Shown: one piece after another, positions 1,296 through 38,184 of the stretch
Position numbering within the stretch: the stretch's first letter is position 1
Layout of the letters: the number at the start of each line of letters is the position of its first letter
Origin: an uncultured bacterium
Lineage (GTDB): Bacteria; Patescibacteriota; Minisyncoccia; Phycocordibacterales; DATDWN01
DNA length: 42,525 nucleotides
NCBI GenBank assembly: GCA_903861205.1
Contig: CAIOTC010000017.1
Location: 1-42,525 of the forward strand
Direction of reading: 5' to 3'
Made by a program: the position numbers and the translations under genes
The notes under the pieces: model-generated
Database searches by the model: none
Seen by the model: only the letters and a program-made list of their open reading frames with translations
What the model was told of the DNA's origin: nothing

Positions 1296-1459
1296 CACAA
1301 AACAAAAAATTTTCAAAAAATCTTGTCGAGACGAAGCAATTTTGGGGGCTCACGGACGGCGGCGGGCGGAGTGCGAGCGCAAAAAATAGCAATTTTTTGA
1401 CGCGCACCCCAAAATTGCTTTGACTCGTAAGAGATTTTTTGAGAATTTTTTGTTTTGTG
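1296..1459. repeat. Long-hairpin intergenic element, family L copy 1
   Basis: The 28-nt outer arms cacaaaacaaaaaattttcaaaaaatct / agattttttgagaattttttgttttgtg match 27/28. Inside are the junction motifs cttgtcgag ... ctcgtaagag shared with the other L copies. Confidence 0.8.
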
Positions 1460-1462
1460 ATT

Positions 1463-2293
1463 CTATTCCAACTTATAATACAATTTGTTACCAAACCTCA
1501 AATCAATATAATCAAAATTCAGCGTTGTTGTAGCTGTCGCGGAAATGGTGCCCAGAAGCGCCTGCAAGTTGTCAGCTGATTTGGCGAGCGGTTCCTTGGT
1601 GTCTATATATATGTATCCACCGCCCGCAAGCCCAACCGTGAATTGCTCGTCGCCTGTCGACTGCAAATAAATCGGATGCAAAGATAAATCTTGGGCGCGT
1701 TTTATAAATTTGCCAAAATCTTTGAAAAGAGTTGTGGAAGCAATGTATTGCGTACCGATAGGCGTCGTGGAAGAAGCAACCCTGCCGTAATATTTGAAAT
1801 ACGCGTCGCCGGAAAAATCCGGAGATTCGGCAAAAATTAAACCGTTATCATCCATGAAATAGCAAACTCCCGCCGGAACATCCTCCGGCATTCCACTGCA
1901 CCAGAGCGCGGTCAATGGGCGTTCAGTAATAGCAATGCTTAAAGTTTGAGAATTTTTCAAATGCACGGAAATGGTATCAATGCGCTGGAATTTTTCGGCA
2001 AGAAAATTTTGAAGCGAGTTGTGCTGATACAGCAAGTCGTTATTTTTCGGGAAAAACCAAAAATAATTTCCGCTCATAAAATTTTTCGCGGCGGCGGAAA
2101 CTTCATCGTTGGAAACCAATGTGTTGCCTGAAAGCTCAACCGAAGAAATACGAAATTTTTGCATGCGCGATAAAAACACAGTGCCAACAAACAGAATAAT
2201 CAACAAAAACAAAATAAAGCCGTATTTTATCAAACGAGCCTTTCTTTTTTTGAGCAAATATTCTTCTCGATGTGACAAGGGTTGAGAAGACAT
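1463..2293 (-). CDS. ftsQ: Cell division protein FtsQ-like (N-terminal TM helix plus POTRA)
   Basis: A TM helix (YGFILFLLIILFVGTVFL) is followed by ISSVELSGNTLVSNDEV, a POTRA-type start. The size is 276 aa. Confidence 0.7.
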   Translation of the reverse strand: MSSQPLSHREEYLLKKRKARLIKYGFILFLLIILFVGTVFLSRMQKFRISSVELSGNTLVSNDEVSAAAKNFMSGNYFWFFPKNNDLLYQHNSLQNFLAEKFQRIDTISVHLKNSQTLSIAITERPLTALWCSGMPEDVPAGVCYFMDDNGLIFAESPDFSGDAYFKYYGRVASSTTPIGTQYIASTTLFKDFGKFIKRAQDLSLHPIYLQSTGDEQFTVGLAGGGYIYIDTKEPLAKSADNLQALLGTISATATTTLNFDYIDLRFGNKLYYKLE

Positions 2294-2305
2294 TGAATTT
2301 TTAAA

Positions 2306-3577
2306 CTATTTTTTGGAGATAATTTTCTGTCCGTTCATGTATTGCTGCAGGACGTCGGGAATGCGAATACTGCCGTCTGCGTTTTGATAGTTTTCGACAA
2401 TCATAATGAGTGGTCGGCCGGAGAGCGCAGTGTTGTTGAGCGAGTGGACAAACTTCATCTTGCCGTCGTCATCGCGATAGCGGATGTTCAGTCGGCGCGT
2501 TTGGAAATCGTGGAAATAGGAGGCCGAGCCGGTTTCGCGATATTTATTTTCTGACGGCAGCCACGCTTCAATGTCATATTTTTTGACCTGTCCCAGTCCC
2601 AAATCCCCCGCGCAGTTTATAACCACATGATATGGCAATCCCAGAGCCTGCATTATTCCTTCGGTATTAGCTTGTATTTCCTCGTGAAATTTGACGGATT
2701 CTGTGTGTGAGGCCTCACACAAAACAACTTGTTCAAATTTATAAAATTCGTGAACGCGCAAAATACCTTTGGTGTCCTTGCCATGCGCGCCGATTTCCCG
2801 CCGAAATGCCGGAGAAAAGCCAATAAACTTTTTCGGCAAGTCTTTTTTATCCAATATCTCGTCCATGTGATAGCCCATGAGCGAAACCTCAGCCGTACCG
2901 GATAGAAATTCACCATCCTGTGTTTTAAACAAATCTTCCTCGCCTTGCGGCAAATATCCGGTGCCCATGAAAGCTTCGCGGCGAACGAGTGACGGCACGA
3001 TCATCGGAAACCAATCTCCTTTTTTCAAAAAATAATCATTGACAAATTGCCAAAGCGCAAACTGCAACCGCGCTCCGTCGCCAGTCAAAAAATATCCGCG
3101 GAAGCCAGCCACCTTTGTGCCGCGTTCAAGAGAAAGCATGTTGAGATTTTCCATCAGTTCCATGTGACTTTTCGGAGTGAAATCAAATTTTGGAATTTCG
3201 CCCCAAGTTGAAATTTCTTTGTTGTCTTCATCGCTGTTTCCTTCCGGCACGGACATGTCCGGAATGTTCGGCACACGAACCATCAGACTTTGCCAGTCGT
3301 GCATAACGGTTTTCAATTCCTCCTCCTCTTTTTGCAACTCGGATTTGAGAGCCTGCATTTTGGAAATCATTTCTGACTTTTCGACCGGGTCGGAAATCCT
3401 GACGATTTTGTCGGATGTCTCATTTTGCTCGGCACGCTTTTTTTCGATTTCGGAAATGAGTTCGCGTCTTTTGTCGTCCACTTTCAAAAGTTCCTCCACA
3501 TCAAAATCAATGTGTTTTTTCTTGGCGCCCATCTGCACCAAATCCTTGTTGTCTCGGATAAATTTTATGTCTAACAT
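2306..3577 (-). CDS. serS: Seryl-tRNA synthetase
   Basis: An N-terminal coiled-coil arm is followed by class II aaRS motifs (FRRE, GSASYFHDFQTRRL, NNTALSGRPL). The size is 423 aa. Confidence 0.95.
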   Translation of the reverse strand: MLDIKFIRDNKDLVQMGAKKKHIDFDVEELLKVDDKRRELISEIEKKRAEQNETSDKIVRISDPVEKSEMISKMQALKSELQKEEEELKTVMHDWQSLMVRVPNIPDMSVPEGNSDEDNKEISTWGEIPKFDFTPKSHMELMENLNMLSLERGTKVAGFRGYFLTGDGARLQFALWQFVNDYFLKKGDWFPMIVPSLVRREAFMGTGYLPQGEEDLFKTQDGEFLSGTAEVSLMGYHMDEILDKKDLPKKFIGFSPAFRREIGAHGKDTKGILRVHEFYKFEQVVLCEASHTESVKFHEEIQANTEGIMQALGLPYHVVINCAGDLGLGQVKKYDIEAWLPSENKYRETGSASYFHDFQTRRLNIRYRDDDGKMKFVHSLNNTALSGRPLIMIVENYQNADGSIRIPDVLQQYMNGQKIISKK

Positions 3578-3603
3578 AATAAATATAGTATATAACAGAA
3601 TGG

Positions 3604-3641
3604 AAAAATGAAAAAGGCGCTTGTGTGTTAAGCAAGCGCCC
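3604..3641 (-). terminator. Intrinsic-terminator-like hairpin about 30 nt upstream of the serS start codon, on the serS strand
   Basis: The minus strand reads gggcgcttg-cttaacaca-caagcgcc followed by tttttcattttt. It closes a roughly 270-nt hairpin-rich stretch (3642-3880). Confidence 0.55.
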
Positions 3642-3892
3642 TTCGAGAACTTCGTTGGTCCTCTAGAAGATGTATGTTTTCAACTTTTGACAATCCTGAA
3701 GAAACCAGAGTATTCTATAAAACTCCTTTCTCCGCTTTCCCAAGGCGGTATCTTAGGGAGGGAAAGACCGGAAATGAACGTTGGTCTTTAATCAAACTAT
3801 CACAAATGCAAAATTTTGCAAATGTTAGTCAGAGAGGGGCATCCTCTCGATTCGGGGTTGAGAAGATGCCCCTCTCTGATATAATTATTATC

Positions 3893-4759
3893 ATGCAAAT
3901 TGAAAATCTTCCGAAAAATAAATTTCCGGAACTGCTCAAACAAATTCCCGATCCACCGAAGAGTTTGCGGATCGTCGGAGAACTGCCGGCCGAAAATAAT
4001 CCGGACATAAAATATTTGTGCGTTGTCGGCTCGCGGAGATATTCACAATACGGAAAAGAAGTTTGCGAAAGTTTGATCGACGGTTTGCGCGGATATCCGA
4101 TCGCCATTGTTTCGGGACTGGCGCTTGGCATTGACGGTATCGCTCACCGCGCTGCGCTGAACGCAGGATTGAAAACCGTTTCAATTCCCGGCTCGGGACT
4201 TTGCGAAAAAAATATTTATCCGTCGGCTCACAAAGAACTGGCCAAAGAAATCGTGGAATCCGGCGGATGCTTGCTTTCCGAATTTGTCGACACATGGCAC
4301 CCACGGCTAGAAAGCTTTCCACAGCGCAATCGCATCATGGCTGGCATGTCGCACGCCACTTTCGTGGTTGAGGCCGAGCTGAAATCCGGCACGCTCATCA
4401 CTTCAAAATACGCCATTGAATACAACCGCGACGTTTTCACTGTGCCACATTCCATCTTCTCAAAAACTTCAGAAGGCCCGCATATGCTTCTGCGCCTCGG
4501 GGCCACGCCAATCACGCAGTCATCGGACATTGTCACGGCGCTGGGTTTGCGACCAAAAGAGGAACTTTTCGAAACGCGCGATTATTCCGAGTGTTCAACA
4601 GATGAAAAAGAAGTGATCGAAATCCTGCGCGAACCGATGTCGCGCGATGAAATAATTAGGATGTTGGAAAAACCGGTGTATGTCACACAAACCATTTTGG
4701 CAACGATGGAAATAAAAGGTTTAATTGTAGAACAAATGGGAGAGATACATCTCGTGTAA
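3893..4759 (+). CDS. dprA: DNA processing protein DprA/Smf. Start moved to MQIENLPK.
   Basis: GSRRYSQYG, VSGLALGIDGIAHRAAL and FPQRNRIMAG are DprA Rossmann-fold signatures. The upstream part of the track ORF crosses the structured serS leader. Confidence 0.85.
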   Translation: MQIENLPKNKFPELLKQIPDPPKSLRIVGELPAENNPDIKYLCVVGSRRYSQYGKEVCESLIDGLRGYPIAIVSGLALGIDGIAHRAALNAGLKTVSIPGSGLCEKNIYPSAHKELAKEIVESGGCLLSEFVDTWHPRLESFPQRNRIMAGMSHATFVVEAELKSGTLITSKYAIEYNRDVFTVPHSIFSKTSEGPHMLLRLGATPITQSSDIVTALGLRPKEELFETRDYSECSTDEKEVIEILREPMSRDEIIRMLEKPVYVTQTILATMEIKGLIVEQMGEIHLV

Positions 4760-4796
4760 TTTGCTAAAAAAATAATTTTCGGTAATACTACTAAAT

Positions 4797-7043
4797 ATGA
4801 CAAAACTTTTAATCGTTGAATCTCCGGCAAAAGCAAAAACAATTTCAAAATATTTGGACGGCAAGTACGAGGTGGTCGCCAGTGTCGGACACATTCGTGA
4901 TTTGCCGAAATCAAACAAAATCGCCATCGATATTCCAGGCGGTTTTATTCCGCATTACGAAATTTCCAAAGGCAAAGAAAAAATTGTTTCGGAAATAAGA
5001 TCGCTCGCTAAAAAAGCTGACATTGTCCTGCTAGCCACCGACCCCGACCGCGAAGGCGAGGCAATCGCTTGGCATATCGAACAGCTCATCAGAGGTGATT
5101 TTCCAAATTCCAAAGTCAAAAAAACGGAAACCGACGACAAAATTAAACGTGTCAGCTATCACGAAATCACCAAAGAAGCTATCGAAGAAGCTCTGGAACA
5201 TCCGAGGGAAATCGATCAGAATTTGCGCCAAGCCCAGGAAGCTCGACGCGTTTTGGACAGGCTTGTCGGCTACGATTTATCCGGACTCATCTGGAAAAAA
5301 GTGCGTTACGGACTTTCAGCCGGACGCGTTCAGTCGCCCGCTTTGCGCATCATCATGGAACGCGAGCGCGAAATCCGCGCTTTCAAATCGCACAAGTTCT
5401 GGGTTATTTCCGCCGATGTTATTCCCCAAGGTGACACCTTGGGGGAAAAGTTTACCGTTGTCTGCGAAAAAGAACCGACCATCAAGGGCGAGGTAGAGCA
5501 GATTATTTTGGACGCTGAAAAAGCCGGAAAAGAAAACAGCTGGTACGTCAAAGATGTCAAAGAAACGCAAGTTAAGAAAACTCCGCGACCACCGTTCATC
5601 ACTTCCACGCTCCAGCAGTCGGCCAGCACGCGTCTCGGTTTCGCTCCATCGCGTACAATGGGCATCGCTCAAAAACTTTACGAATCCGGTTACATCACAT
5701 ACATGCGCACAGACTCAACCAACCTCTCTCAGCTCGCGCTCGGCCAAATCGCCGGTGAAATAGAGAAAAGATTTGGTAAAGATTTTTTGCAGTTCAGAAA
5801 ATATGCAGCCAAAAGCAAAAATGCCCAGGAAGCCCACGAAGCAATTCGCCCGACGCACATGTCCGTTGAAAAAGCCGGGCACACCGATGAACAGCAAAAG
5901 TTGTACGAACTTATCTGGCACCGCACACTCGCTTCGCAGATGCGCGACGCCGAAACTTTGCGAACAAAAATCACAGCAAACGTGGCTGGCGACAAAGTTC
6001 CAGATTTTTCCTCTGTCGGTTCGCGTGTCATTTCTCCCGGCTGGCTTTTGGGCGACCCTGCTTCGCGAGGCGAAGATGTGGAATTACCGAAAGTAAAAAC
6101 TGATGAAAATCTTACGCTTGAAAAAGTTAGCACTGAGGAAAAAGAAACGGAACCGCCGACAAGATATTCCGAAGCCGGATTAGTCAAGGAATTGGAAAAA
6201 CGTGGCATCGGCCGACCTTCGACGTACGCTTCGATTATCAAAACGATCGAAGACCGCGGATACGTAGAAAAAATAAACAAAGCTCTTGTGCCGACGGACA
6301 CAGGCGATGTCGTTTCGTCATTTTTGGAAAAAAATTTCGAAAGTTACATCAGCGACGATTTCACTGCCGAGATGGAAGACAAACTCGACCTTATCGCTGA
6401 GGGCAAGGAAGACTACACCAAGATGCTGACAAAGTTTTACAAGCCGTTTTTGGCTGACGTCAAAGCCAAAGATAAATTGGACAAAGTGACAAACCTCGGC
6501 GACGCCGATCCAAAATTCAAATGTCCGATTTGCGGAGGTCCGATGATTATCAAACTTTCGCGTGGCGGGAAATTTTTGTCATGCGCCAAATATCCGGACT
6601 GCGACGGGGCGCTGACCATGGACGGACAGGAAATCAAAAAAGATGAACCGATCGGTGTTGATCCGGAAAGCGGTTTGCCAATTTTTGTCATGATTGGAAA
6701 ATATGGACCTTATGTACAGCTCGGCGAACGAGCCAGTGGCAAAGGTAGCACAAAGGCCGCCAAACCGAGAATGGCTAGTGTGCCAAAAGGCAAGGATTTG
6801 TCGACGATTACTTTGCAGGAAGCGCTAAAATATTTATCGCTGCCGCGCGTCCTCGGCGTCCATCCGGCTACGGGCGAAAAAATTTCCGCCAATGTCGGAA
6901 TGTTTGGACCGTACGTCGTTCACCAAAAAGATTTTCGGTCGCTCAAAGCGCCAGATGATGTTTACACCGTCGAACTCCCCCGCGCTCTGGAAATTTTCGC
7001 TCAAGAGAAGAAAAAACGCGGGTTTGCGAAGAAGAAAAAGTAA
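4797..7043 (+). CDS. topA: DNA topoisomerase I
   Basis: A TOPRIM start (LLIVESPAKAKTISKYL), the active-site region YITYMRTDS and a C-terminal Cys4 zinc ribbon (CPICGG...CAKYPDC) are present. The size is 748 aa. Confidence 0.95.
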   Translation: MTKLLIVESPAKAKTISKYLDGKYEVVASVGHIRDLPKSNKIAIDIPGGFIPHYEISKGKEKIVSEIRSLAKKADIVLLATDPDREGEAIAWHIEQLIRGDFPNSKVKKTETDDKIKRVSYHEITKEAIEEALEHPREIDQNLRQAQEARRVLDRLVGYDLSGLIWKKVRYGLSAGRVQSPALRIIMEREREIRAFKSHKFWVISADVIPQGDTLGEKFTVVCEKEPTIKGEVEQIILDAEKAGKENSWYVKDVKETQVKKTPRPPFITSTLQQSASTRLGFAPSRTMGIAQKLYESGYITYMRTDSTNLSQLALGQIAGEIEKRFGKDFLQFRKYAAKSKNAQEAHEAIRPTHMSVEKAGHTDEQQKLYELIWHRTLASQMRDAETLRTKITANVAGDKVPDFSSVGSRVISPGWLLGDPASRGEDVELPKVKTDENLTLEKVSTEEKETEPPTRYSEAGLVKELEKRGIGRPSTYASIIKTIEDRGYVEKINKALVPTDTGDVVSSFLEKNFESYISDDFTAEMEDKLDLIAEGKEDYTKMLTKFYKPFLADVKAKDKLDKVTNLGDADPKFKCPICGGPMIIKLSRGGKFLSCAKYPDCDGALTMDGQEIKKDEPIGVDPESGLPIFVMIGKYGPYVQLGERASGKGSTKAAKPRMASVPKGKDLSTITLQEALKYLSLPRVLGVHPATGEKISANVGMFGPYVVHQKDFRSLKAPDDVYTVELPRALEIFAQEKKKRGFAKKKK

Positions 7044-7250
7044 AATTGCATTTTCATAGACACGCATAAATCGCTGGTGCGATTTTGCTATGCTCGGAAA
7101 TCAAGAAAACAATCGTCCTCGATACAGAGCCCTTTCGCAAACGGCGTCCTAGGGCGCCGCCCTTGCTGCGCAGGGTCGCTGCTTCGGGCTTCTTTCATCT
7201 TCGTCGTTGTTTTCTAATTTCCTGCGCAAGTCTCTGAAAATGCAATTTTA
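7041..7250. repeat. Long-hairpin intergenic element, possible divergent family L member (copy 2)
   Basis: Perfect 16-nt outer arms taaaattgcattttca / tgaaaatgcaatttta start on the topA stop codon. Inner arms are ggaaatcaagaaaacaa / ttgttttctaatttcc. The junction motif is degenerate. Confidence 0.6.
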
Positions 7251-7300
7251 CTTTTTCAGTGGTAATTTTTCAGAAAATCACTACAATAGAGACGAACCTG

Positions 7301-7356
7301 CATTATTCGTAGCAATTCGTAGATTCGCATCATTCGCATATTCGTATATTCATTCA
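7301..7356 (+). repeat. Tandem ATTCGYAK array (6 units) ending 1 nt before the relA start codon
   Basis: The sequence reads cattattcgtagca-attcgtag-attcgcatc-attcgcat-attcgtat-attcattcac. A near-identical array lies upstream of ftsZ (36726-36772). Confidence 0.75.
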
Positions 7357-7357
7357 C

Positions 7358-8782: not shown

Positions 8783-8787
8783 CGACA

Positions 8788-8910
8788 CAAATTTCTTACG
8801 AGCCAACACTTTTCCGTCGCCAGAATATTTTTCTGCTGAAAAATTTCTTCCTGCTCGTCTCTTCACGGGCTCCGCAATGCGCCGTAAAAGCGTCGGCTCG
8901 ACAAAATTTG
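8788..8910. repeat. Family L element copy 3 (short form)
   Basis: The sequence caaatttcttacgagccaacactttt ... aaaagcgtcggctcgacaaaatttg is about 90% identical to copies at 35812-35950 and (reverse complement) 24610-24744. Confidence 0.85.
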
Positions 8911-8921
8911 CTAGTGGTTAT

Positions 8922-10019: not shown

Positions 10020-10028
10020 GGGTATATT

Positions 10029-15260: not shown

Positions 15261-15404
15261 ATGAATTGCGGACCTCTTGCGGGACACCACTCTGCCACTT
15301 CTTATTTTATTTTGGGCTCCATTGTTCTGTTGATTGTCATATCAACAATAGGAATATTTGGGCAGATGTTTTATGCCATTTTTTCAGGAGCCGCCTCACG
15401 CTAA
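15261..15404 (+). CDS. Small (47 aa) single-TM membrane peptide
   Basis: It reads MNCGPLAGHHSATSYFILGSIVLLIVISTIGIFGQMFYAIFSGAASR*. The RBS AAGGAG lies 9 nt upstream of the ATG. Confidence 0.45.
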   Translation: MNCGPLAGHHSATSYFILGSIVLLIVISTIGIFGQMFYAIFSGAASR

Positions 15405-15567
15405 CAAAACGTGGGGCTTTTCTTTTTTCTGCGGGCCCAAGAGGATTTTCCCTCAAAATTTTTTCGTCGCCACTCAAAAATTTCTGGGCACCGAATTGGC
15501 GACAACCGCTGCTGCGGTCGTATACTGCCAATTCGTTCAAATCCTAAGCATAAAACTTCGTTTTCTG

Positions 15568-15638
15568 CGGGCCCAAGAGGATTTGAACCCCTGTCGCTCC
15601 TTTTGGAGAGGAGAATTCTACCACTGAACTATAGGCCC
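15568..15638 (-). tRNA. tRNA-Trp (anticodon CCA)
   Basis: The cloverleaf has acceptor GGGCCTA/TGGGCCC, anticodon arm CTCCT-CTCCAAA-AGGAG and T arm AGGGG-TTCAAAT-CCTCT. The length is 71 nt. Confidence 0.9.
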
Positions 15639-15657
15639 TTACGGATTTTATACTAAC

Positions 15658-15684
15658 AAAAATTCGCCCTTTTGGCGAATTTTT
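15658..15684. terminator. Bidirectional terminator hairpin between rpmG and tRNA-Trp
   Basis: The stem is aaaaattcgcc-ctttt-ggcgaattttt. Confidence 0.6.
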
Positions 15685-15717
15685 ACTTGTTAAACTTTTC
15701 CAACTTATCAAACTTAT

Positions 15718-15873
15718 TTACTTTTTTGCCTCTTTGAAACTGACTCGTTTGCGGAGTTTTTTGCTGTATTTTTTGAGCTCGATTTTACGCTCAACTTTTT
15801 TCTTATTTTTCGAAGTCCAATACACCTCTCCGGTTGATTTGCTTCTTAGTGGAATTAGTCGATCTTGTGACAT
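15718..15873 (-). CDS. rpmG: 50S ribosomal protein L33. Start moved to MSQDRLIPL.
   Basis: The 51-aa sequence MSQDRLIPLRSKSTGEVYWTSKNKKKVERKIELKKYSKKLRKRVSFKEAKK matches the L33 pattern (T.KNK....kLelkKY.p..rkh...kE.K). Confidence 0.85.
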   Translation of the reverse strand: MSQDRLIPLRSKSTGEVYWTSKNKKKVERKIELKKYSKKLRKRVSFKEAKK

Positions 15874-16084
15874 AGTGAAAAGAGTGTAGCACAAAATGTG
15901 CCCGAAATGCAAGTGGAATTTTTAAGCCCAATTTGCGATAAATATCAACGAGTTATATCATTAAATCATGGACGCAGCATTTGGAATTGTTTTCATAGTT
16001 ATAGTTTTGTACGTGGCATCAAAATTATCACCGTAACACGGCTTTCTCTACACCACACAATAATCCCCTTTCGGGGATTATTTG

Positions 16085-16167
16085 TGCGTCGGGTAGGATT
16101 CGAACCTACGTAGGCCGAGGCCGTTAGATTTACAGTCTAATGCGATTGACCACTCCGCCACCGACGC
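16085..16167 (-). tRNA. tRNA-Tyr (anticodon GTA)
   Basis: The cloverleaf has acceptor GCGTCGG/CCGACGC, anticodon arm TTAGA-CTGTAAA-TCTAA, a long variable arm and T arm GTAGG-TTCGAAT-CCTAC. The length is 83 nt. Confidence 0.9.
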
Positions 16168-16240
16168 GTACAAAAAGAGTACCAAATTTTTCGATTTGAT
16201 ACAACTTTTGTCATAAAGGTTCGACCTTGATGCCCAGTTC

Positions 16241-21443: not shown

Positions 21444-21467
21444 AAAACTGAAATTTTTGGAATATAA

Positions 21468-21508
21468 AATCCTCCGGCTTCGCCACCTCCTTTAAGAAAG
21501 GAGGAATT
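21468..21508 (+). repeat. 42-nt two-hairpin unit (family U), forward orientation
   Basis: The unit reads aatcctcc-ggcttcgcc-a-cctccttt-aag-aaaggagg-aatt. Confidence 0.8.
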
Positions 21509-21516
21509 GATGCATT

Positions 21517-21946
21517 AATCTCCCTTTTTTAAAGGGAGTGGCCGAAGGCCGAGGGATTTTTAGTGCATTCCACAATTTTTCTTACACAACTCTCTAAATT
21601 AGTTTTTATATCAATATCTCTGAATCTAATTATTTTGACTCCAGCATTCTTTAAAATCTCATCTCTCACCTCATCATTTTCTATTTTTGCATCATGACTA
21701 ATGCCGTCAATTTCAATTGCAAGATTTAATTTTGAACAATAAAAATCAACTATGTAGTTGTTGATAGGTCTCTGTCTCAAAAATTGGCAACCTAATTTTT
21801 TATCTTTTATTTCTTTCCATAGCAATACTTCAGATAATGTTGATTCGTTCCGTAACTTTTTGGAAAATTTTTTTAGATTTTTATTGTAAATGAGTTTCAT
21901 AAAATCCCTCCCCGCTTCGCGGTACTCCCTTTAAGAAAGGGAGATT
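21517..21946 (-). mobile_element. Candidate compact element: a DUF559 endonuclease gene bounded by inverted family-U units (21517-21558 and 21903-21946)
   Basis: The left end is aatctcccttttttaaagggagtggccgaaggccgagggatt. The reverse complement of the right end is aatctccctttcttaaagggagtaccgcgaagcggggagggatt. The unit pair at 29077-29172 shows the same two-end arrangement with only 12 nt between the ends. Confidence 0.5.
21529..21900 (-). CDS. DUF559 / Vsr-like (PD-(D/E)xK) endonuclease domain protein
   Basis: LLWKEIKDKKLGCQFLRQRPINNYIVDFYCSKLNLAIEIDGISHD...IIRF is the DUF559 pattern. The last 9 codons (NPSAFGHSL*) are encoded by the flanking repeat unit. Confidence 0.8.
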   Translation of the reverse strand: MKLIYNKNLKKFSKKLRNESTLSEVLLWKEIKDKKLGCQFLRQRPINNYIVDFYCSKLNLAIEIDGISHDAKIENDEVRDEILKNAGVKIIRFRDIDIKTNLESCVRKIVECTKNPSAFGHSL

Positions 21947-21956
21947 TGAATGCGGG

Positions 21957-24325: not shown

Positions 24326-24556
24326 ATGCAACGACGAATAAAATTGAGTATATATTTACCACAGGATATTCATACGCAACTTAAAATTATGGCCGTGCAA
24401 AATGCCACTTCCATACAAAACTTAGCATGTGCCCAACTGACATCATACGTATCTTTTCCACCAGTTCCAGTACACAATGTTAATGATGACCACGTTGATA
24501 AATTGGACGAAATACTAAAAGAAGCAATCAAAATTTTAGGCACAATGAAGAAATAG
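24326..24556 (+). CDS. Small ribbon-helix-helix (CopG/Arc-like) protein, 76 aa. Start moved to the ATG after the RBS GGAGGA.
   Basis: RIKLSIYLPQDIHTQLKIMAVQNATSIQNLACAQL fits a strand-helix-helix pattern. A terminator hairpin follows at 24557-24585. Confidence 0.5.
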   Translation: MQRRIKLSIYLPQDIHTQLKIMAVQNATSIQNLACAQLTSYVSFPPVPVHNVNDDHVDKLDEILKEAIKILGTMKK

Positions 24557-24585
24557 GGACCTGCACATGCAGGCCTTCTTTTTTA
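24557..24585 (+). terminator. Intrinsic terminator after the RHH gene
   Basis: The stem is ggacctgca-ca-tgcaggcc followed by ttctttttt. Confidence 0.6.
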
Positions 24586-24609
24586 TTTTAAAACCAAAAT
24601 CCATAAGTA

Positions 24610-24744
24610 GGCAACAAAATTTCGTCGAGACAATACTTTTTGGGCGCATTGCGGAGTGCGTGAAGACACGAGCAGGAAGAAATTTTCCAGCAGGAAAATA
24701 TTCTGGCGACCAAAAAGTGTTGGCTCGTAAAAAATTTTGTTGCC
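24610..24744. repeat. Family L element copy 4 (short form, opposite orientation to copies 3 and 7)
   Basis: The sequence ggcaacaaaatttcgtcgag ... ctcgtaaaaaattttgttgcc has a reverse complement that aligns along its whole length with 8788-8910. Confidence 0.85.
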
Positions 24745-24756
24745 ACCAAAACCAAA

Positions 24757-25449
24757 CTAATTCCACCCGCGAGATTTCAGTGCCTCGCGCGCTGCAGACT
24801 GCTCCGCATCTTGTTTTGAATCCCCTTCGCCTTGTGCCACCAGTTCCTTGCCGACATAGACGCCGACGGTGAATTTTTTTTCGTGATCCGGGCCGGACTC
24901 TTTCACTGTTTTGTAGGACGGAGTGATGCCGTCGAATTCCTGGGCTTTTTCCTGGAACAAACTTTTGGCATCAATCCATGAACCCGCAGAAATAATCCCT
25001 TCAATGAGCGGAGTAAATTCCCGTTCAATAAATGATTTTGAAATATCATAACCTTGATCAAGATAAACCGCACCGATAAAAGCTTCCAGCGTGTTGGCTA
25101 AAATGTATTGTCGCGCCCGGCCATTGTCCTTGCTTTCGCCTTTGGACAAAAGCAAATATTCATTCATGCCAAGCTTGGTGGCAATGTCAGAACACGTCAC
25201 AGCATTGACCAGGGACGATCGATAAGCGGTCAAATCACCTTCAGTTTTTGTCGGATATTTTTGGTAGAGAAAATCGGTAATGACCAGCTCCAAAACAGCG
25301 TCACCCAAAAACTCCAGGCGCTCATTGTGCGAAAGTCCCGAATTTTTGTTTTCGTTTATATATGAGCGGTGCACGAAGGCCTGAGTCAAAAGGTTTTGAT
25401 CTTTAAACTCCACTCCTGCGCGCTTCTGGAATTCTGTAAAATCGTTCAT
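24757..25449 (-). CDS. rnc: Ribonuclease III. Start moved to MNDFTEF.
   Basis: The RNase III signature NERLEFLGDAVLE and a C-terminal dsRBD (FTVGVYVGKELVAQGEGDSKQDAEQSAAREAL) are present. Confidence 0.9.
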   Translation of the reverse strand: MNDFTEFQKRAGVEFKDQNLLTQAFVHRSYINENKNSGLSHNERLEFLGDAVLELVITDFLYQKYPTKTEGDLTAYRSSLVNAVTCSDIATKLGMNEYLLLSKGESKDNGRARQYILANTLEAFIGAVYLDQGYDISKSFIEREFTPLIEGIISAGSWIDAKSLFQEKAQEFDGITPSYKTVKESGPDHEKKFTVGVYVGKELVAQGEGDSKQDAEQSAAREALKSRGWN

Positions 25450-25467
25450 ACACGGAGTATAACACAC

Positions 25468-25540
25468 AAATTTTCAATTTACAATTTCAAATTTTCAATG
25501 AATTTCCCAATGAACCAATTTTCAAAAATTCTTCAATCTA
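25468..25540. repeat. AT-rich hairpin family W, partial copy 1 (upstream of rnc)
   Basis: The sequence ttttcaatgaatttcccaatgaaccaatt matches the centres of the copies at 26780, 34033 and 34512. Confidence 0.6.
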
Positions 25541-25629
25541 CGCTATAGCTGAGATTAAAAAGTTTGCTCACACCAGGGTAGACCGTTGCTGTGCCGTTGA
25601 CTACCCTGGTGAGAGCTCCAAAAAACAGC

Positions 25630-25828
25630 AAAAATAATTAGCAGAATTTCGTCGATGTCGTTTCGTTTTCGGAGCATCCACAGCCCGCGAGCATGGTTTT
25701 GTCAACGACCCCGCCTTCGGGGTGGGGCTCATTGACAAATCGCGGGCGAGGACAGAGAAAATTTTTCGCCGGAAAATTTTCGTCTCCGAAAAGGAAACAA
25801 CTCGTAAGAAATTCTGCTAATTATTTTT
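25630..25828. repeat. Family L element copy 5 (long form)
   Basis: Perfect 21-nt outer arms aaaaataattagcagaatttc / gaaattctgctaattattttt overlap the nusB stop codon. The core shares ccttttcggagacgaaa, ttctctgtcctcg, gatttgtcaatgagcccc, ggggtcgttgacaaaaccatgctcg and ggatgctccgaaaa with 37952-38184. Confidence 0.85.
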
Positions 25829-26711: not shown

Positions 26712-26779
26712 GTCTTACAATATAGTGTATCAAATGACAGATATGATATCAACAAACAAGAATTGCGAACTGAACCGAA

Positions 26780-26892
26780 CAATTTCCAATGATCAATTTT
26801 CAATTTTCAATGAATTTTACAATGAACCAATCGTCCAATTGAAGAATTGATTCATTTATTGGAAATTGAAAATTGTTACTTGAAAATTTCCT
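26780..26892. repeat. Family W hairpin copy 2 (between the nusB start and the rpmF stop)
   Basis: The arms are caattttcaattttcaatgaat / attcatttattggaaattgaaaattg. The centre is caatgaaccaatcgtccaattgaagaattg. Confidence 0.75.
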
Positions 26893-29048: not shown

Positions 29049-29076
29049 AAAAATAGAGTTTACGCATTTGTGCACC

Positions 29077-29172
29077 ATTCTCCCTTTCATAAAGGGAGTG
29101 GCCGAAGGCCGAGGGATTTTTTGATTTCAAAATCCTCCGCCCTGCGGGCACCTCCTTTAAGAAAGGAGGATT
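29077..29172. repeat. Gene-less pair of family-U units (reverse then forward orientation, 12-nt spacer)
   Basis: The sequence is attctccctttcataaagggagtggccgaaggccgagggatt - ttttgatttcaa - aatcctccgccctgcgggcacctcctttaagaaaggaggatt. Confidence 0.8.
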
Positions 29173-29248
29173 AATGCGTGAGCTATTAAAGAATATCTTA
29201 TCACAAAAATAAAAGCCCCGGCGTTTCCGCGCGGGACTGTACAACTTT

Positions 29249-33056: not shown

Positions 33057-33060
33057 TGAC

Positions 33061-33219
33061 GCAAATCTCAATTTCGCATTCCTTTCCAGAGTAACCTCAA
33101 AAACTCCTGCGAGTTTTTGAGGCTGATCCTCGGCCAAAACTTGTCAAGATGGAATGCCTTGACAAGACCATGCTTTTGGCCTGCGGAGCCTCCGGAAAGG
33201 AATGCAAAATGAGATTTGC
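33061..33219. repeat. Family L element copy 6
   Basis: The outer arms are gcaaatctcaatttcgcattcctttccagag / ctccggaaaggaatgcaaaatgagatttgc. The core has tcctcggcc...cttgtcaag...cttgacaag...catgcttttggcctgcggagcctcc, parallel to copies 5 and 8. TAGTGGTGA follows. Confidence 0.8.
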
Positions 33220-33285
33220 TAGTGGTGATGGAAAAAATGCAGGATTAGGAATAAAATTAGACTATTAATAAATAATTATAAAATC

Positions 33286-33534: not shown

Positions 33535-33584
33535 TTCACGGCTTGAAATAAAATAGCTCCTGTGCTAGTGTTATGAGCATATGA

Positions 33585-33774
33585 CCCTGTAGTAGAAGTT
33601 GACATTGCGCCAAAGCGCTTAGAAAGATGTCAACTTCATTACAGGATACATCCCGTAGTGAAAATGGCATTAATTTCATTGACTACGCGGTTATTTAACA
33701 AAAATCGGTATTATTAATATTTAATTTTGAAATGACATATTGCTCGTAGAGCGATGCCATTTTCTACTAACAGG
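33585..33774 (+). repeat. Structured 190-nt repeat, family S copy 1 (directly upstream of rpsU)
   Basis: It is about 80% identical to 41422-41613. It contains four copies of a CYGTAGTRGAA motif arranged as two inverted pairs. Confidence 0.8.
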
Positions 33775-33783
33775 ATGATAAAA

Positions 33784-34032
33784 ATGGTAAATGCGGAGGT
33801 TGTTAGGACCGGAAATGAAAACAACGTAAACCTCATCAGAAGGTTCACCAAACGCGTCCAGGGATCGGGCGTTTTGCCTCGTGTCCGAAGCATCCGCTAC
33901 TCGTCTCGCAAGCAATCCGAGTACGTTAAAAAGAAAAAAACTCTCAAAGTTTTGAAACGCCGCGAAGAAGTCAACGAGCTCATCAAAATGGGAAAAATGG
34001 TGGAGAATACCAGGGGACCGAAGAAAAAATAA
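33784..34032 (+). CDS. rpsU: 30S ribosomal protein S21. The start is uncertain between 33775 and 33784.
   Basis: MVNAEVVRTGNENNVNLIRRFTKRVQGSGVLPRVRSIRYSSRKQSEYVKKKK fits the S21 pattern (ALRRFKR...G.l.e.R.R..Y.kPSe.rk). Confidence 0.8.
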   Translation: MVNAEVVRTGNENNVNLIRRFTKRVQGSGVLPRVRSIRYSSRKQSEYVKKKKTLKVLKRREEVNELIKMGKMVENTRGPKKK

Positions 34033-34136
34033 TTTTTCAAGTATCAATTTCCAATTTCCAATGAATTTCTCAATGAACCAATTGTCCAATTGAAGAATTG
34101 GAAAATTCATTGGAAATTGGAAATTGGAAATTTTTA
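34033..34136. repeat. Family W hairpin copy 3 (between rpsU and ybeY)
   Basis: The arms are caatttccaatttccaatgaattt / aaattcattggaaattggaaattgg. The centre is ctcaatgaaccaattgtccaattgaagaattgg. Confidence 0.8.
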
Positions 34137-34142
34137 GTAACT

Positions 34143-34523
34143 ATGAACAACATTTTCTCCATAACCAACACTACGCGAGGCGAAGTTCCTGGTGTTGATT
34201 TTTTGCCTATTAAGGACTCTGTACTGGGTAAAAAATACGAACTTTCACTGGTTTTTGTCGGCGATAAAAAATCACAAACGCTCAACAACAAATATCGAAA
34301 ATTTAACAAACCGACAAATTGTCTCAGTTTCTCGCTCGGCAAAAATTCCGGAGAAATTTTCATCAATTTGGGCAAGGCAAAAAAAGAAGCGCCGAGCTTT
34401 GGCATGAAATTCGAAAAGTTCATAATTTACTTGTTTATTCACAGTTGCTTGCATTTGAAAGGAATGGATCATGGGAGTATAATGGAGAAAGCAGAAGAAA
34501 AAATGCTAAAAATTTTCAAGTAA
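34143..34523 (+). CDS. ybeY: rRNA maturation endoribonuclease YbeY. Start moved to MNNIFS.
   Basis: TNCLSFSL and the metal-binding motif HSCLHLKGMDH are present. The size is 126 aa. Confidence 0.85.
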   Translation: MNNIFSITNTTRGEVPGVDFLPIKDSVLGKKYELSLVFVGDKKSQTLNNKYRKFNKPTNCLSFSLGKNSGEIFINLGKAKKEAPSFGMKFEKFIIYLFIHSCLHLKGMDHGSIMEKAEEKMLKIFK

Positions 34524-34620
34524 CAATTTCCAATTTCCAATAAATGAATCAATTTTTCAATTGAACAATTGGTTCATTGGAAAATTCATTGAAAATTGGA
34601 AATTGGTCATTGAAAATTTC
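34512..34620. repeat. Family W hairpin copy 4 (between ybeY and ftsA; approximately the reverse complement of copy 2)
   Basis: The sequence is aaattttcaagtaacaatttccaatttccaataaatgaatc...gattcattgaaaattggaaattggtcattgaaaattt. Its centre is the reverse complement of the copy 2 and 3 centres. Confidence 0.8.
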
Positions 34621-34628
34621 CCCTTCCC

Positions 34629-35807: not shown

Positions 35808-35811
35808 TCGT

Positions 35812-35950
35812 TTTGAACTAAAATTTCTTACGACCCAACACTTTTCCGTCGCCAGAATATTTTCCTGCTGGAAAATTTCTTCCTGCTCACCTCTTCACGG
35901 GCTCCGCAATGCGCCGTAAAAGTGTCGGCTCGACGAAATTTTAATTCAAA
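35812..35950. repeat. Family L element copy 7 (short form)
   Basis: The sequence tttgaactaaaatttcttacgacccaacactttt ... aaaagtgtcggctcgacgaaattttaattcaaa aligns with 8788-8910. Confidence 0.85.
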
Positions 35951-36021
35951 TCTGCATTAGTAAAAACAAAGAGATTGGAGATAGAAAAAGCCGGCTCCCA
36001 CACTTCGGGGCCGGCTCAACG

Positions 36022-36438
36022 TTAATTACTCCTGTGGCTTTTGATGAACTTTCCTAGGCGATAGTACGCCTGTCTTTGAATCTCTTTCACGCCGCAGAAT
36101 GTTAGAGACTCTTGTTTGGCGATCTGCCTCAGACGCAGGCCGTTGAAAAAACGTGCCTGAACAATCCTTCGTTGAAGTGGGGTCAGGATCTCCATCCCCA
36201 GCGAAATGAGCTCGACTTCCTCGTCAGTAAATCGGTATGAGGGCGAGGAAGAATCGGGCACTTCGAGTTGGGCCAGTTCGTGTTCCGGTAAAAGAAGAAA
36301 AGGTTCCCCTTCTTCTCCTTCTTCCATGTGAAGTACCATGGTTCCGGGCTCTTCCGCCAGGAGATCTTCAATCCTTTCGTTTGACAGGAAAGGAAATTGG
36401 TTTTCCGCAAGGGCAGCAGCAGATACCAACTTGTTCAT
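36022..36438 (-). CDS. Small acidic protein with a sigma-70 region-4-like HTH only (138 aa)
   Basis: LTPLQRRIVQARFFNGLRLRQIAKQESLTFCGVKEIQRQAYYRL resembles sigma region 4.2. No region 2 is present. The RBS AAAGGAGAG is upstream. GC content is higher than in the neighbouring genes. Confidence 0.55.
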   Translation of the reverse strand: MNKLVSAAALAENQFPFLSNERIEDLLAEEPGTMVLHMEEGEEGEPFLLLPEHELAQLEVPDSSSPSYRFTDEEVELISLGMEILTPLQRRIVQARFFNGLRLRQIAKQESLTFCGVKEIQRQAYYRLGKFIKSHRSN

Positions 36439-36725
36439 TCTCTACTCTCCTTTTGCATCAGCTCCTCAAGAAGCTGCTAGTACTTTTCCACCTTTTATTA
36501 AAGCACCTTTGGCATCTTCATGTCAACTTCATAATGTAATTTGTTATCCACACCTGTTTGGGGAGCAAAAATTGCTCAAAAACTGGAACATCAAAAATCA
36601 TATGGTCAATTGTTTGCTTATCTGTGGCTTTCTGATACAATATGGGTGATTTCCTGAACCTTGATTTTTCCATAAATCGGCAGTATCGAGGTATTTTGGA
36701 AATTTTTCTTTTTATTGTAATTAAA

Positions 36726-36772
36726 TTATTCGTAGCCATTCGTAATATTCGCATCATTCGTATATTCGTATG
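36726..36772 (+). repeat. Tandem ATTCGYAK array (5 units) 17 nt upstream of the ftsZ ATG
   Basis: The sequence reads attattcgtagcc-attcgtaat-attcgcatc-attcgtat-attcgtatgg. Compare 7301-7356. Confidence 0.75.
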
Positions 36773-36788
36773 GCTTTAGCCAAACACT

Positions 36789-37946
36789 ATGCCACAAATC
36801 AAACCAGAAGTAGAAGCATTCGCTCGGATCAAAGTTCTCGGCATCGGCGGTTCCGGAAAAAACGCGCTCAACCACATGATCAACTCGAAAGTTCGCGGAG
36901 TTGATTTCATTGCCGTCAATACCGACTCGCAGGATTTGCACAACTCGATGGCCAAGAGGAAAATTCATATCGGTAAAAACCTCACTCGCGGATTGGGCGC
37001 CGGAATGAATCCGGAACTCGGCAAACGGGCCATTGAAGAAACGAAAGAGGAAATTCAAGAAGCGGTCAAAGGATCCGACATGGTTTTTATCGCCGGCGGA
37101 CTTGGGGGCGGAACTTGCACGGGCGCAGCGCCGGTTGTGGCTCGCATTTCAAAAGAAATGGGCGCGCTAACCGTGGCTGTCGTGACCAAACCGTTTTTCT
37201 TTGAAGGCCAGCAAAGAATGAAAATCGCCGACGTCGGTCTTGACGAACTTCGCCAAGCGGTTGACGCCATCATCGTCATTCCAAACGACCGACTACTCTC
37301 AACCATCAGCAAAGAAACGACCGCTAAAAGCGCCTTTGCCATGTGCGACGACGTTTTGAAATCGGCTGTCGAAGGTATCTCCGACCTCATCACCACACCC
37401 GGCATCATCAACATCGACTTCGCCGATATCAAAGCCGTCATGGAAAACGCTGGACCGGCCCTGATGGGCATCGGCACGGCTACGGGTGAAAAACGCGCCG
37501 AGGAAGCGGCCAAATCGGCCATCAATTCCCCACTGCTCGAAGTTTCGATCAACGGCGCCAAAGGTGTACTGTTCTCGATTGCCGGCGGAGACGACCTGGG
37601 CATGTTCGAAATCCAGGACGCTGCCAAAATCATTACCGAGTCCGTCGATCCAAACGCCAAGATTATTTTCGGAACCGTTCGCGACGAAAAACTGAAAAAA
37701 GGCGAAGTTAAAATCACCGTCATCGCTTCCAACTTCCCGGAAAATTTCACCAAGAAAACGCTTTTCCAGGCGCAGGCCAGCAACGCACCAATTTCCGATC
37801 GCCGAGAGATGGAAGAGGAGAAGGGTAAAATCTACAACTCAATCCCCGTCTCATCACCAAGAATGGATGAAAAGATAGATGTCGTTGAAGAAGACGACGA
37901 ATGGGGAGCTGTCCCGGCGTTTTTGAGAAGGTCAAAAATTAAATAA
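36789..37946 (+). CDS. ftsZ: Cell division GTPase FtsZ
   Basis: GIGGSGKNA, the tubulin signature GGLGGGTCTGAAPV and NIDFADI are present. The size is 385 aa. Confidence 0.95.
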   Translation: MPQIKPEVEAFARIKVLGIGGSGKNALNHMINSKVRGVDFIAVNTDSQDLHNSMAKRKIHIGKNLTRGLGAGMNPELGKRAIEETKEEIQEAVKGSDMVFIAGGLGGGTCTGAAPVVARISKEMGALTVAVVTKPFFFEGQQRMKIADVGLDELRQAVDAIIVIPNDRLLSTISKETTAKSAFAMCDDVLKSAVEGISDLITTPGIINIDFADIKAVMENAGPALMGIGTATGEKRAEEAAKSAINSPLLEVSINGAKGVLFSIAGGDDLGMFEIQDAAKIITESVDPNAKIIFGTVRDEKLKKGEVKITVIASNFPENFTKKTLFQAQASNAPISDRREMEEEKGKIYNSIPVSSPRMDEKIDVVEEDDEWGAVPAFLRRSKIK

Positions 37947-37951
37947 TTTTC

Positions 37952-38184
37952 AAAAATTTCTTAAAACATTACCTTTTCGGAGACGAAAGCCCGTCCAGCG
38001 ACGGGCTTTCTCTGTCCTCGGCCTCGATTTGTCAATGAGCCCCTCTCCAGTTTTAAGGTCTGGCCTTGGGAAATTGGCTGTTTAAGGCCAGACCTTTGGA
38101 ATCCAAAACTGGGGAGGGGTCGTTGACAAAACCATGCTCGAGGCCTGCGGATGCTCCGAAAAGGTAATGTTTTAAGAAATTTTT
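37952..38184. repeat. Family L element copy 8 (long form) carrying a nested double hairpin at its apex (38047-38112)
   Basis: Perfect 24-nt outer arms are aaaaatttcttaaaacattacctt / aaggtaatgttttaagaaattttt. The core is collinear with the reverse complement of copy 5. TAGTGGTGA follows. Confidence 0.85.

Follow-up and report, generated by a model that had tools for sequence, protein, structure and literature searches.

Family L is a set of eight long hairpin repeats at gene ends in a 42,525-nucleotide (nt) stretch of DNA from an uncultured Patescibacteriota bacterium (GenBank assembly GCA_903861205.1, contig CAIOTC010000017.1; the whole stretch is hereafter called the window). The copies share an elaborate inner frame and are closed by outermost stems that are unrelated from copy to copy and complementary within each. 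Reading the sequence, we lean towards the view that hairpin template switching during replication homogenises and extends the two arms of each copy. With rather less confidence, we propose that the element may be co-transcribed and serve as a terminator-like or protective 3' stem-loop and possible RNase III substrate, with a restart promoter on some copies. The copies are dispersed and turn over fast at fixed gene-end sites where relatives have plain terminators or nothing. Whether family L is what it appears to be, an undescribed, lineage-restricted superfamily of non-coding, non-autonomous, imperfectly palindromic DNA repeats, we consider evenly balanced.

An earlier note on this DNA, made from the letters alone, had described eight loci that all fold back on themselves as a single family. 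RNAfold and an inverted-repeat scan confirmed the loci and their folding. The family did not prove homogeneous: BLAST and direct reading divide it into three subfamilies built on one frame, La (c1, c3, c4 and c7), Lb (c5, c6 and c8) and Lc (c2). The copies, with the genes that they adjoin, are these:

c1, 1293..1462, minus strand: divergent La copy with a 23-base-pair (bp) unique outer stem; spans the whole gap from the ftsQ stop codon (1463) to the dus start codon (1279)
c2, 7034..7257, plus strand: Lc copy with the frame, another apical module and no junction; the topA stop codon lies within it
c3, 8788..8910, plus strand: La copy; begins 6 nt past the relA stop and ends 12 nt ahead of the convergent parB stop
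c4, 24610..24744, minus strand: La copy with outer stem GGCAAC/GTTGCC; begins 12 nt past the stop codon of rnc (RNase III) and opposes a convergent 76-amino-acid open reading frame (ORF; 24326-24556) that has its own terminator
c5, 25630..25828, minus strand: full Lb copy with junction, three-way core and 14-bp unique outer stem; sits between nusB-NUDIX and rnc
c6, 33061..33219, plus strand: Lb copy with a near-perfect unique stem in place of the junction; begins 5 nt past the dnaE stop codon
c7, 35812..35950, plus strand: La copy, 94% identical to c3; begins 5 nt past the ftsA stop codon
c8, 37952..38184, plus strand: Lb copy with a perfect 31-bp outer stem; begins 6 nt past the ftsZ stop codon
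c8 nested 80-nt hairpin, 38040..38119, plus strand: lies in the apical loop of c8 and is absent from c5

Together they fill 1,382 nt, or 3.2% of the window, with a unit length of 120–235 nt. Their RNAfold energies run from -37.6 to -144.2 kcal/mol, with z-scores of -5.3 to -15.9 against dinucleotide shuffles on both strands, and the inverted-repeat scan independently places c1, c2, c4, c5, c6 and c8 among the longest in the window. By BLAST, c3, c4 and c7 are 89–94% identical to one another; c1 and c4 have in common the junction and the 10-mer CGCACTCCGC. Blocks that are 94% identical unite c5 and c8, and c6 matches these two at the level of motifs. With the other copies c2 shares the frame only. 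Previously called divergent, it proved to be a true member that can be oriented through its stem P1 (TTTTCATAGAC/GTCTCTGAAAA), its side hairpin P2 (AAATCGC-TGGT-GCGATTT) and the element TGCTCGG...CCTGCGCAAGTCTCTG (TGCTCGG...CCTGCGCA in our feature list). The apical module of c2 recurs in at least 15 loci of relatives, and an orthologous copy stands after topA in L264 (relatives are given L-numbers).

We take the arm bearing AAATTTCTTACGAG as the 5' arm. Read from the outside inwards, the frame consists of the following parts, the complete set of which is carried by c5:

Outermost layer: copy-specific outer stem, 0–28 nt
Closing stem P0: AAAATCTC/GAGATTTT, in the window AAATTTC/GAAATTT
Asymmetric internal loop: TTAC(T/G)(C/A) opposite CTCGAC, as in TTACTC / CTCGAC
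Variable stem: 6–9 bp, inside the asymmetric loop
Stem P1: CTTTTCAGAG/CTCTGAAAAG
Three-way core, side branch: P2 side hairpin with a variable stem and the loop CCNGCG
Three-way core, conserved strands: TCCTCGG-N5-A ... T-N5-CC-TGCGGA, or TCCTCGG...CCTGCGGA
Three-way core, tip: an exchangeable apical module
Lb apical module: TTGTCAA, a variable hairpin and TTGACAA(A/G), then the 7-nt bulge ACCATGC

The junction AAATTTCTTACGAG / CTCGACGAAATTT, thought to be shared by most copies, is present in five of the eight (c1, c3, c4, c5 and c7, with at most 2 mismatches) and missing from c2, c6 and c8. In c1 it reads AAATCTCTTACGAG at 1424-1437 and CTCGACAAGATTT at 1318-1330, both on the minus strand. P0 follows the same division: common to the junction-bearing copies, it is sub-terminal in c1, c4, c5 and c7 and absent or altered in c2, c6 and c8. 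What is left of the junction among these last three differs. Nothing remains in c2, and AAATCTC/GAGATTT alone remains in c6. The 5' arm of c8 retains AAATTTCTTA alone, and its 3' arm is the perfect complement of this sequence, not CTCGAC..., which makes a 31/31 stem. The exact junction strings of the window found no match in 80 ftsZ loci; relatives have the variant AAAATCTCTTACTC / CTCGACGAGATTTT.

That the outermost stems are copy-specific and self-complementary was upheld, since cores that are 89–94% identical end in unrelated outer stems. Beyond the shared AAATTTC/GAAATTT, pairing continues for 1 bp in c3, 6 bp in c4 (GGCAAC), 8 bp in c7 (TTTGAACT), 14 bp in c5 and 23 bp in c1, and the junction-less copies c2, c6 and c8 have unique outer stems of 17–31 bp. 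Those junction-bearing copies of relatives that do not stop at the shared 8 bp add 1–7 bp. Perfect stems of at least 13 bp occur in 4 of 16 relatives' copies, against 0 of 378 cross-paired controls.

A mechanism that copies the flank in inverted orientation, one of two origins suggested for these stems, is directly visible in c2 and c5:

7034..7043, plus strand: last three codons and stop of topA, GAAAAAGTAA, at the start of the c2 5' outer arm
7248..7257, plus strand: TTACTTTTTC, exact reverse complement of the topA end, between the c2 3' arm and the tail
25821-25828, minus strand: end of nusB, AAAAATAA, stop included (...LLKK then stop), at the start of the c5 5' arm
25630-25637, minus strand: inverted copy of the nusB end, in the c5 3' arm

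For the 10 nt of c2, the probability of such a match by chance is about 1e-6. The TopA C-terminus GFAKKKK (then stop) also occurs in the element-free L257, so the start of the c2 5' arm is ancestral coding sequence. The nusB end is likewise the same in L172 and L175, which lack the element; in L175 the nusB-rnc spacer is 5 nt. No matching palindrome lies downstream in these element-free relatives (L257; L172 and L175).

Ordinary transposition, with terminal inverted repeats (TIRs) and target-site duplication (TSD), left no such mark on the eight copies. At the borders of the hairpin or of the shared stem the longest direct repeat is 0–2 bp in 8/8 copies, which is the random expectation, and we rejected an ordinary miniature inverted-repeat transposable element because no copy has a TSD. 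Junction-motif pairs 0.3–5 kb apart, the mark of a long form with the same ends, were not in excess in 2.66 Mb of loci, and the ORFs of the window include no transposase. The 64-kb contig L333 of a relative has an IS30-like transposase gene (HTH_38 + rve) at 15294-16289, and the surroundings of this gene hold no ends resembling family L. We also considered the apical insert of c8 as a separate mobile hairpin; only its 15-bp stem recurs, once, in L071, too little to decide the matter. The hairpin there (L071:12277-12329), with stem CCCCTCTCCAGTTTT/AAAACTGGGGAGGG, is flanked by direct repeats GTGGGCGGTAGAGGGCT and is possibly another hairpin family nesting inside others.

The inner helices covary, as the earlier note had proposed to test. 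We aligned 75 Lb frames and scored helices P2 and P3 against shuffles and slid registers. Cells changed on both sides numbered 320, far above the 88 +/- 8.7 of shuffles, and paired cells made up 94.2% of the inner helices versus 75.8%. The covariation score was 0.507, compared with 0.165 in shuffles and at most 0.212 in slid registers. One column pair reads GC 27, AU 26, CG 17 and UA 4, with a single broken cell. The P2 loop CCNGCG, which lies outside the search pattern, is at least 90% conserved. The fold is thus maintained in the inner helices. Among orthologous copies, a c2-type copy stands just upstream of ftsA in four species, which marks some copies as old, and the ftsA-upstream copies of L012, L013, L022 and L023 differ by compensated changes, with TTTGCT...AGCAAA in L013 versus TTTGTT...AACAAA in L023, and outer stems TTAAAAT/ATTTTGAG versus TCAAAGT/ACTTTGA.

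Covariation alone does not discriminate between structural selection, on RNA or single-stranded DNA (ssDNA), and arm-to-arm templated correction. The strands were compared as well, and do not decide the matter. Helix P3 has 4 G-U cells, set against 17 A-C cells and 163 double changes. Counts of interior G-U pairs differ modestly, with 65 for the sense strand and 101 for the antisense (22 versus 30 by element). In folding, the antisense strand has the better energy for 71 of 82 relatives' copies and for 7 of 8 window copies, an advantage that in our judgement probably comes from purine-rich unpaired segments. Of the alternatives offered earlier, structural selection with covariation and inverted copying of the flank, each has evidence on its side; a role as RNA stays hypothetical, relatives having the element in both orientations next to stop codons.

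Family L keeps to gene ends. The expectation that the elements adjoin stop or start codons was correct, with distances of 0–14 nt. All eight window copies lie 0–12 nt from the stop codon of an upstream gene, or overlap it (ftsQ, topA, relA, rnc, nusB-NUDIX, dnaE, ftsA and ftsZ), and all eight are in the sense of that gene (two-sided p about 0.008). Among 67 relatives' copies with clean boundaries, 42 have a stop codon at -20 to +30 nt, which is on the sense side alone in 25, on the antisense side alone in 11 and on both sides in 6; the other 25 have none, and 13 hairpins overlap the end of an ORF. Sense orientation prevails next to stop codons (31 versus 17) and, by crude ORF calls, between co-directional genes (32 versus 12). 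In c2, c5 and c8, and at canonical GAGATTTT ends, the stem finishes in a T-run or has one directly after it.

Comparison of syntenic sites, as the earlier note had advised, uncovered both presence/absence and swaps of subfamily at the ends of ftsZ, topA, dnaE and rnc:

ftsZ-trxB spacer: plain terminator hairpin in L003, L008, L011, L015 and L017; La in L007; Lb in the window; other hairpins in L006 and L012
topA-relA spacer, no family L hairpin: only a promoter in L257, L256, L263 and L270; simple terminator in L269 and L273
topA-relA spacer, family L hairpin: Lb in L255, L275 and L266; c2-type in the window and L264; La in L267
topA-relA spacer, small forms: small junction-type copy in L259; 3' remnant in L261
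dnaE end: Lb (c6) in the window; c2-type, in sense, in L333 (77–81% DNA identity)
rnc end: La (c4), in sense, in the window; c2-type, in antisense, in L333

In L333, dnaE is called as five consecutive fragments (3383-6576), which suggests frameshifts or assembly errors. L261 shows that the hairpin can be deleted, leaving the 3' half of the junction and the tail: directly after its topA stop stands a solo 3' remnant, CTCCATACTCGACGAGATTTGCTTTAGTGGTAATATTTAAATATG, and the remnant CTCGACGAGATTTGCTTTAGTGGTAATAT, with the box TGGTAATAT, ends 7 nt before the relA ATG.

The rnc gene, which encodes RNase III (24757-25467; the genome also encodes RNase R), is flanked on both sides by family L hairpins (24610-25828), with c5 in the upstream spacer and c4 after the stop. 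Other members adjoin rnc in L173, L178 and L333. This may be coincidence, or it may be autoregulation by RNase III through a hairpin in its own transcript. The 76-amino-acid ORF that converges on rnc (24326-24590 region) is unannotated, has GGAGG before it and no Pfam match, and is followed by a clear intrinsic terminator (GGGACCTGCACATGCAGGCCTTC + TTTTTTATTTT); it is called in a near-identical strain contig too.

The tail TAGTGGT(G/T)A that had been reported after three copies is found after c3, c6 and c8, and c2 is followed by CAGTGGTAA, which gives (T/C)AGTGGT(G/A/T)A after four window copies:

38185..38193, plus strand: tail TAGTGGTGA, after c8
33220-33228: tail after c6
8912-8920: tail TAGTGGTTA, after c3
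7257-7265: tail CAGTGGTAA, after c2

In relatives the tail stands 3' of 7 of 84 elements, against 1.6 expected, and never 5' in this sense. It resembles the extended -10 promoter box of the lineage, TAGTGnTAnnnT, and the box upstream of ftsZ in relatives, CTTTAGTGCTATAGTAC. This resemblance suggests an outward promoter, a lead from sequence. As a sigma-70 promoter the tail was rejected, because it stands at inconsistent distances from predicted -35 boxes and half of the tails have TGGTGA.

The family appears restricted to the host's own lineage. The FtsZ of the window is nearest to that of metagenome-assembled genomes (MAGs) titled Candidatus Zambryskibacteria or Paceibacterota (candidate phyla radiation, CPR/Patescibacteria), at best 89% amino-acid identity. 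A gapped 22-base pattern from the Lb module, run against 185,579 species genomes, found 89 stretches. About 80 are in Zambryski-, Yanofsky- and Parcubacteria-type MAGs, all with the whole frame and several MAGs having 6 to 10 or more; 8 stretches in other phyla are bare matches that we set aside as chance. La-type and Lc (c2)-type copies occupy at least 15 further loci each in relatives, and an Lb profile found 18 copies in 1.96 Mb of their unselected DNA. Across related MAGs the frame occurs in >100 copies, and these come from dozens of MAGs and studies that are independent of one another. Over 2,953 bp, c8 included, the window has a 100% identical counterpart in a second assembly, L081. A scan of viral contigs gave two chance matches, both without the frame, and carriage by phages or plasmids was discarded on that result.

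Nor does family L match a known RNA family, the outcome that the earlier note had said would undo its proposal. Over the window, Rfam release 15 reported three tRNAs alone at the gathering threshold, and in E-value mode meaningless sub-threshold matches to miRNA hairpins touched c1 only, the other copies matching nothing. Full-text literature searches found no description of such repeats in these bacteria, an absence that is no proof of novelty.

How could such elements arise and change? On the reading that we favour, hairpin-templated DNA synthesis (template switching or quasipalindrome correction) would keep the two arms complementary, turn mutations into 'compensatory' pairs and occasionally erase the asymmetric junction, as in c8 and c6. 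Template switching is known to create, homogenise and expand inverted-repeat arms (PMC8794818, PMC13100816); it makes stems perfect and gives multi-base 'compensatory' changes (PMC8794818, PMC13100816, PMC7202029). The palindrome could also grow outwards by taking an inverted copy of its flank, such as the topA end in c2 and the nusB end in c5, and the outermost stem would then be copy-specific. Template switching would account at once for three features: that the stem of c8 is perfect, that c2 and c5 contain copies of their flanks, and that G-U intermediates are scarce in P3. If it does operate, most copies must owe the persistence of their asymmetric loops and bulges to selection or to copying from intact masters.

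If transcribed together with the upstream gene, as we propose, the long 3' stem-loop, ending in a short U run, might act as a (leaky) terminator or 3'-end protector and be a likely substrate for RNase III, and the -10-like tail of some copies could restart transcription of the next gene. Such a terminator-like role would explain both the replacement of terminators and the excess of sense orientation. Transcripts would then be expected to end at GAGAUUUU or to be cut in pairs within the TTACTC/CTCGAC loop.

Several observations weigh against these proposals. About half of the relatives' junction-bearing copies have no extension past the shared 8-bp stem. A ligand that functions as RNA or ssDNA would likewise be expected to combine covariation with unpaired motifs conserved over deep divergence. 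No T-run follows the hairpin in c1, c4 and c7, which are not canonical terminators, and the start codon that follows c1 is 14 nt away, in what has to be an operon. In half of the tails the sequence is TGGTGA, which makes a poor -10 box. Neither the window ORFs nor relatives' flanks of up to 10 kb yielded a mobilising enzyme. No strain-level pair of filled and empty sites was found, the nearest DNA being 77–81% identical (L333), so we infer the timing and mechanism of outer-stem formation. The near-identical strain P0002, from a protein search, has the same gene spacing as the window, and a metagenome scan with RNase III reached at best 91% amino-acid identity.

Other explanations overlap with this one, and they are not fully exclusive. 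An unlikely account rests everything on selection for the fold: family L would be a cis-acting structured RNA motif of 3' untranslated regions, with a three-way junction and loops (CCNGCG, ACCAUGC and UUACUC/CUCGAC) that a specific protein, for example RNase III or another processing factor, would bind or cut. Its task would be to punctuate transcripts, stabilise them or terminate them, and selection on the fold would produce the covariation, closing stem included. Loops that stay constant while helices covary over Zambryski- and Yanofsky-type genomes fit such a motif well, as do the sense bias in the window (8/8) and in relatives (32 versus 12 between co-directional genes, 31 versus 17 next to stops), the occupied terminator positions, the orthologous copies that persist over species with compensated changes and the two copies flanking rnc itself. 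It is hard to square with the third or more of copies that are antisense to the adjacent gene, and with gene ends that hold different subfamilies or none in close relatives, so that no copy is locus-essential. G-U pairs, moreover, are no commoner on the sense strand (65 sense, 101 antisense; 4 G-U versus 17 A-C in P3), no Rfam family matches, and perfect 21–31-bp unique stems between 94%-identical copies cannot come from point compensation. Equally improbable in our estimate is a structure-targeting mobile hairpin, moved in trans by an enzyme that reads folded ssDNA (for instance a Y1/HUH transposase, known from REP/REPIN, or a recombinase of the IS110 or integrase kind) and inserted into the centre or loop of pre-existing palindromes. 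Its targets would be terminators, A-tract/T-tract sequences and other members; outer stems would be old target arms, and nested modules hairpin-in-hairpin insertions. The nested modularity is suggestive here (the apical insert of c8, the exchangeable apical modules, and c5 with its La-type junction on an Lb core), and so are the simple terminator hairpins replaced at syntenic sites, the flanks without direct repeats, the presence of both orientations and the conserved bulges and loops, which are what hairpin-binding enzymes read. The outer stems tell against it, being A+T-rich and mostly unlike the G+C-stemmed terminators of relatives. The 5' arms of c2 and c5 are conserved coding sequence with no matching palindrome downstream in L257, L172 and L175, and the 3' arm of c8 complements element sequence (AAATTTCTTA), not a target. 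There is also no candidate enzyme gene in the window and no long form in 2.66 Mb, and the family is absent from viral contigs.

That the hairpins are chance structures, or artefacts of assembly or amplification (fold-back chimeras), is vanishingly improbable. Some amplification methods are known to produce inverted chimeras. The fold z-scores of -5.3 to -15.9 and a conserved core in >100 copies from dozens of independent MAGs and studies contradict it, as does c8, identical in the independent assembly L081; recurrence in independent assemblies excludes it. At the other extreme lies a bolder form of the template-switching reading, which we think quite unlikely, somewhat more so than the motif or the mobile hairpin: family L as a palindromic replicator that needs no transposase and is driven by replication. 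At stalled forks, template switching into an existing copy would create a new one, with the help of the A-tract/T-tract microhomology that intrinsic terminators offer, and the new copy would replace the terminator stem. The hairpin just formed would fold back, prime synthesis on its nascent flank and so write the inverted gene-end copy. Continued arm-to-arm copying would keep the stems perfect, and loops and bulges would be preserved by selection on the branched core, which a host protein would read as RNA or ssDNA.

The window holds further repeats. Five ATTCG(T/C)A heptamers at about 10–11-nt spacing stand immediately upstream of the relA and ftsZ starts (7305-7357, 36728-36775), out of 18 in the whole window on both strands; from sequence they look like a phased array of binding sites or a 5'-leader motif common to the two genes. 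A second repeat family forms long A+T-rich palindromes of AATTTCCAAT / AATTTTCAAT units, and similar arrays occur in the nusB-rnc and ftsZ-trxB spacers of L004, L010, L171, L177 and L181. A third consists of CTCCCTTTTTTAAAGGGAGTGGCCGAAGGCCGAGGGATTT plus AAATCCTCCGCCCTGCGGGCACCTCCTTTAAGAAAGGAGGATTAA; its copies flank a gene for a DUF559 (Vsr-like) endonuclease at 21529-21900 and also follow RNase HII and trxB, and a similar sequence comes after nusB in L210. Two ~130-nt stretches, ATCCCGTAGTGAAAATGGCATTAATTTCATTGACTACGCGG..., are 79–88% identical, and sequences like them, CCTGTAGTGAAAATAG..., occur after topA in L253. Their positions are:

Second repeat family: 25461-25526, 26773-26888, 34024-34133 and 34503-34619
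Third repeat family: 21465-21559, 21904-21948, 29062-29174 and 39425-39511
Pair of ~130-nt stretches: 33650-33782 and 41488-41621

CPR/Patescibacteria genomes are small (~1 Mb) and tightly packed, yet family L makes up 3.2% of this window, and related copies stand after the core genes dnaE, ftsA, ftsZ, topA and rnc in many genomes. The conserved branched core and constant loops imply a partner, protein or process, that nobody has yet sought in these uncultured bacteria. 'Compensatory' helix evolution, the erasure of internal loops and the growth of stems into a neighbouring gene end can all be read from these sequences, and a template-switch origin of hairpins becomes testable on hundreds of dated copies. 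The replicator form, if true, would give bacterial repeats a new way to spread and provide a natural system where structured elements are built by template switching. There are practical consequences as well: the repeats break short-read assemblies (contig L081 ends at repeats), and family L needs to be masked or modelled when terminators, small RNAs and promoters are annotated in CPR genomes.

Among known systems, REPIN/REP elements with their RAYT enzymes (Bertels & Rainey 2011, PMC3116915) are alike in being extragenic, multi-copy, non-autonomous and able to form hairpins in ssDNA or mRNA. They too are persistent and largely lineage-restricted, and their recognisable unit is a hairpin, not a TIR. 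Family L differs in its larger unit of 120–235 nt, one branched hairpin with a three-way core and constant loops, and in stem sequences that vary between copies within one genome. REP units (20–40 bp) with a GTAG or CGTC tag as inverted doublets are absent from the copies and the 75 aligned homologues, and no RAYT (Y1 transposase) is present among the annotated ORFs of the window and of relatives' flanks of up to 10 kb. The Correia elements of Neisseria (CREE/NEMIS; PMC2649163) are likewise intergenic inverted repeats, ~100–150 bp long, co-transcribed with their neighbours as long hairpins that RNase III can bind or cut. They can create promoters at their ends and, like family L, are present or absent per site between related genomes. 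They have conserved 26-bp TIRs and a TA duplication, whereas family L has no TSD and copy-specific outermost sequence; the two share no sequence similarity, and for family L RNase III cleavage and promoter activity are predicted only, by analogy.

ERIC/IRU and pneumococcal BOX elements are also imperfect palindromes in transcribed intergenic regions, and BOX is modular (boxA-boxB(n)-boxC), as is family L with its exchangeable inner modules. Their sequences and hosts are unrelated to ours, however, and they share their whole sequence between copies, with neither helix-by-helix covariation nor flank-derived outer stems. Integron attC sites resemble family L as imperfect hairpins placed right after stop codons, with sequences that vary between copies, and are recognised by structure (an unpaired central spacer, extrahelical bases and a variable terminal structure). 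Family L is without RYYYAAC/GTTRRRY core sites, integrase, attI and cassette array, its element ends being AAAATCTC...GAGATTTT or unique sequences, and it has many conserved internal motifs. We rejected integron cassettes because the neighbours (topA, relA, rnc, nusB, dnaE, ftsA and ftsZ) are housekeeping genes in conserved synteny, and CRISPR or TIGR arrays because the copies are dispersed, not tandem. Quasipalindrome template-switch mutation (PMC8794818, PMC7202029, PMC13100816) copies one arm onto the other and matches what is seen in c8, c2, c5 and the orthologous copies. This process is mutational and not itself an element family, and no one has described it as routinely shaping a family of dispersed bacterial repeats or as giving rise to inverted gene-end copies. 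Family L falls into no named repeat family and, by analogy, appears to work like the small transcribed palindromic repeats found at gene ends.

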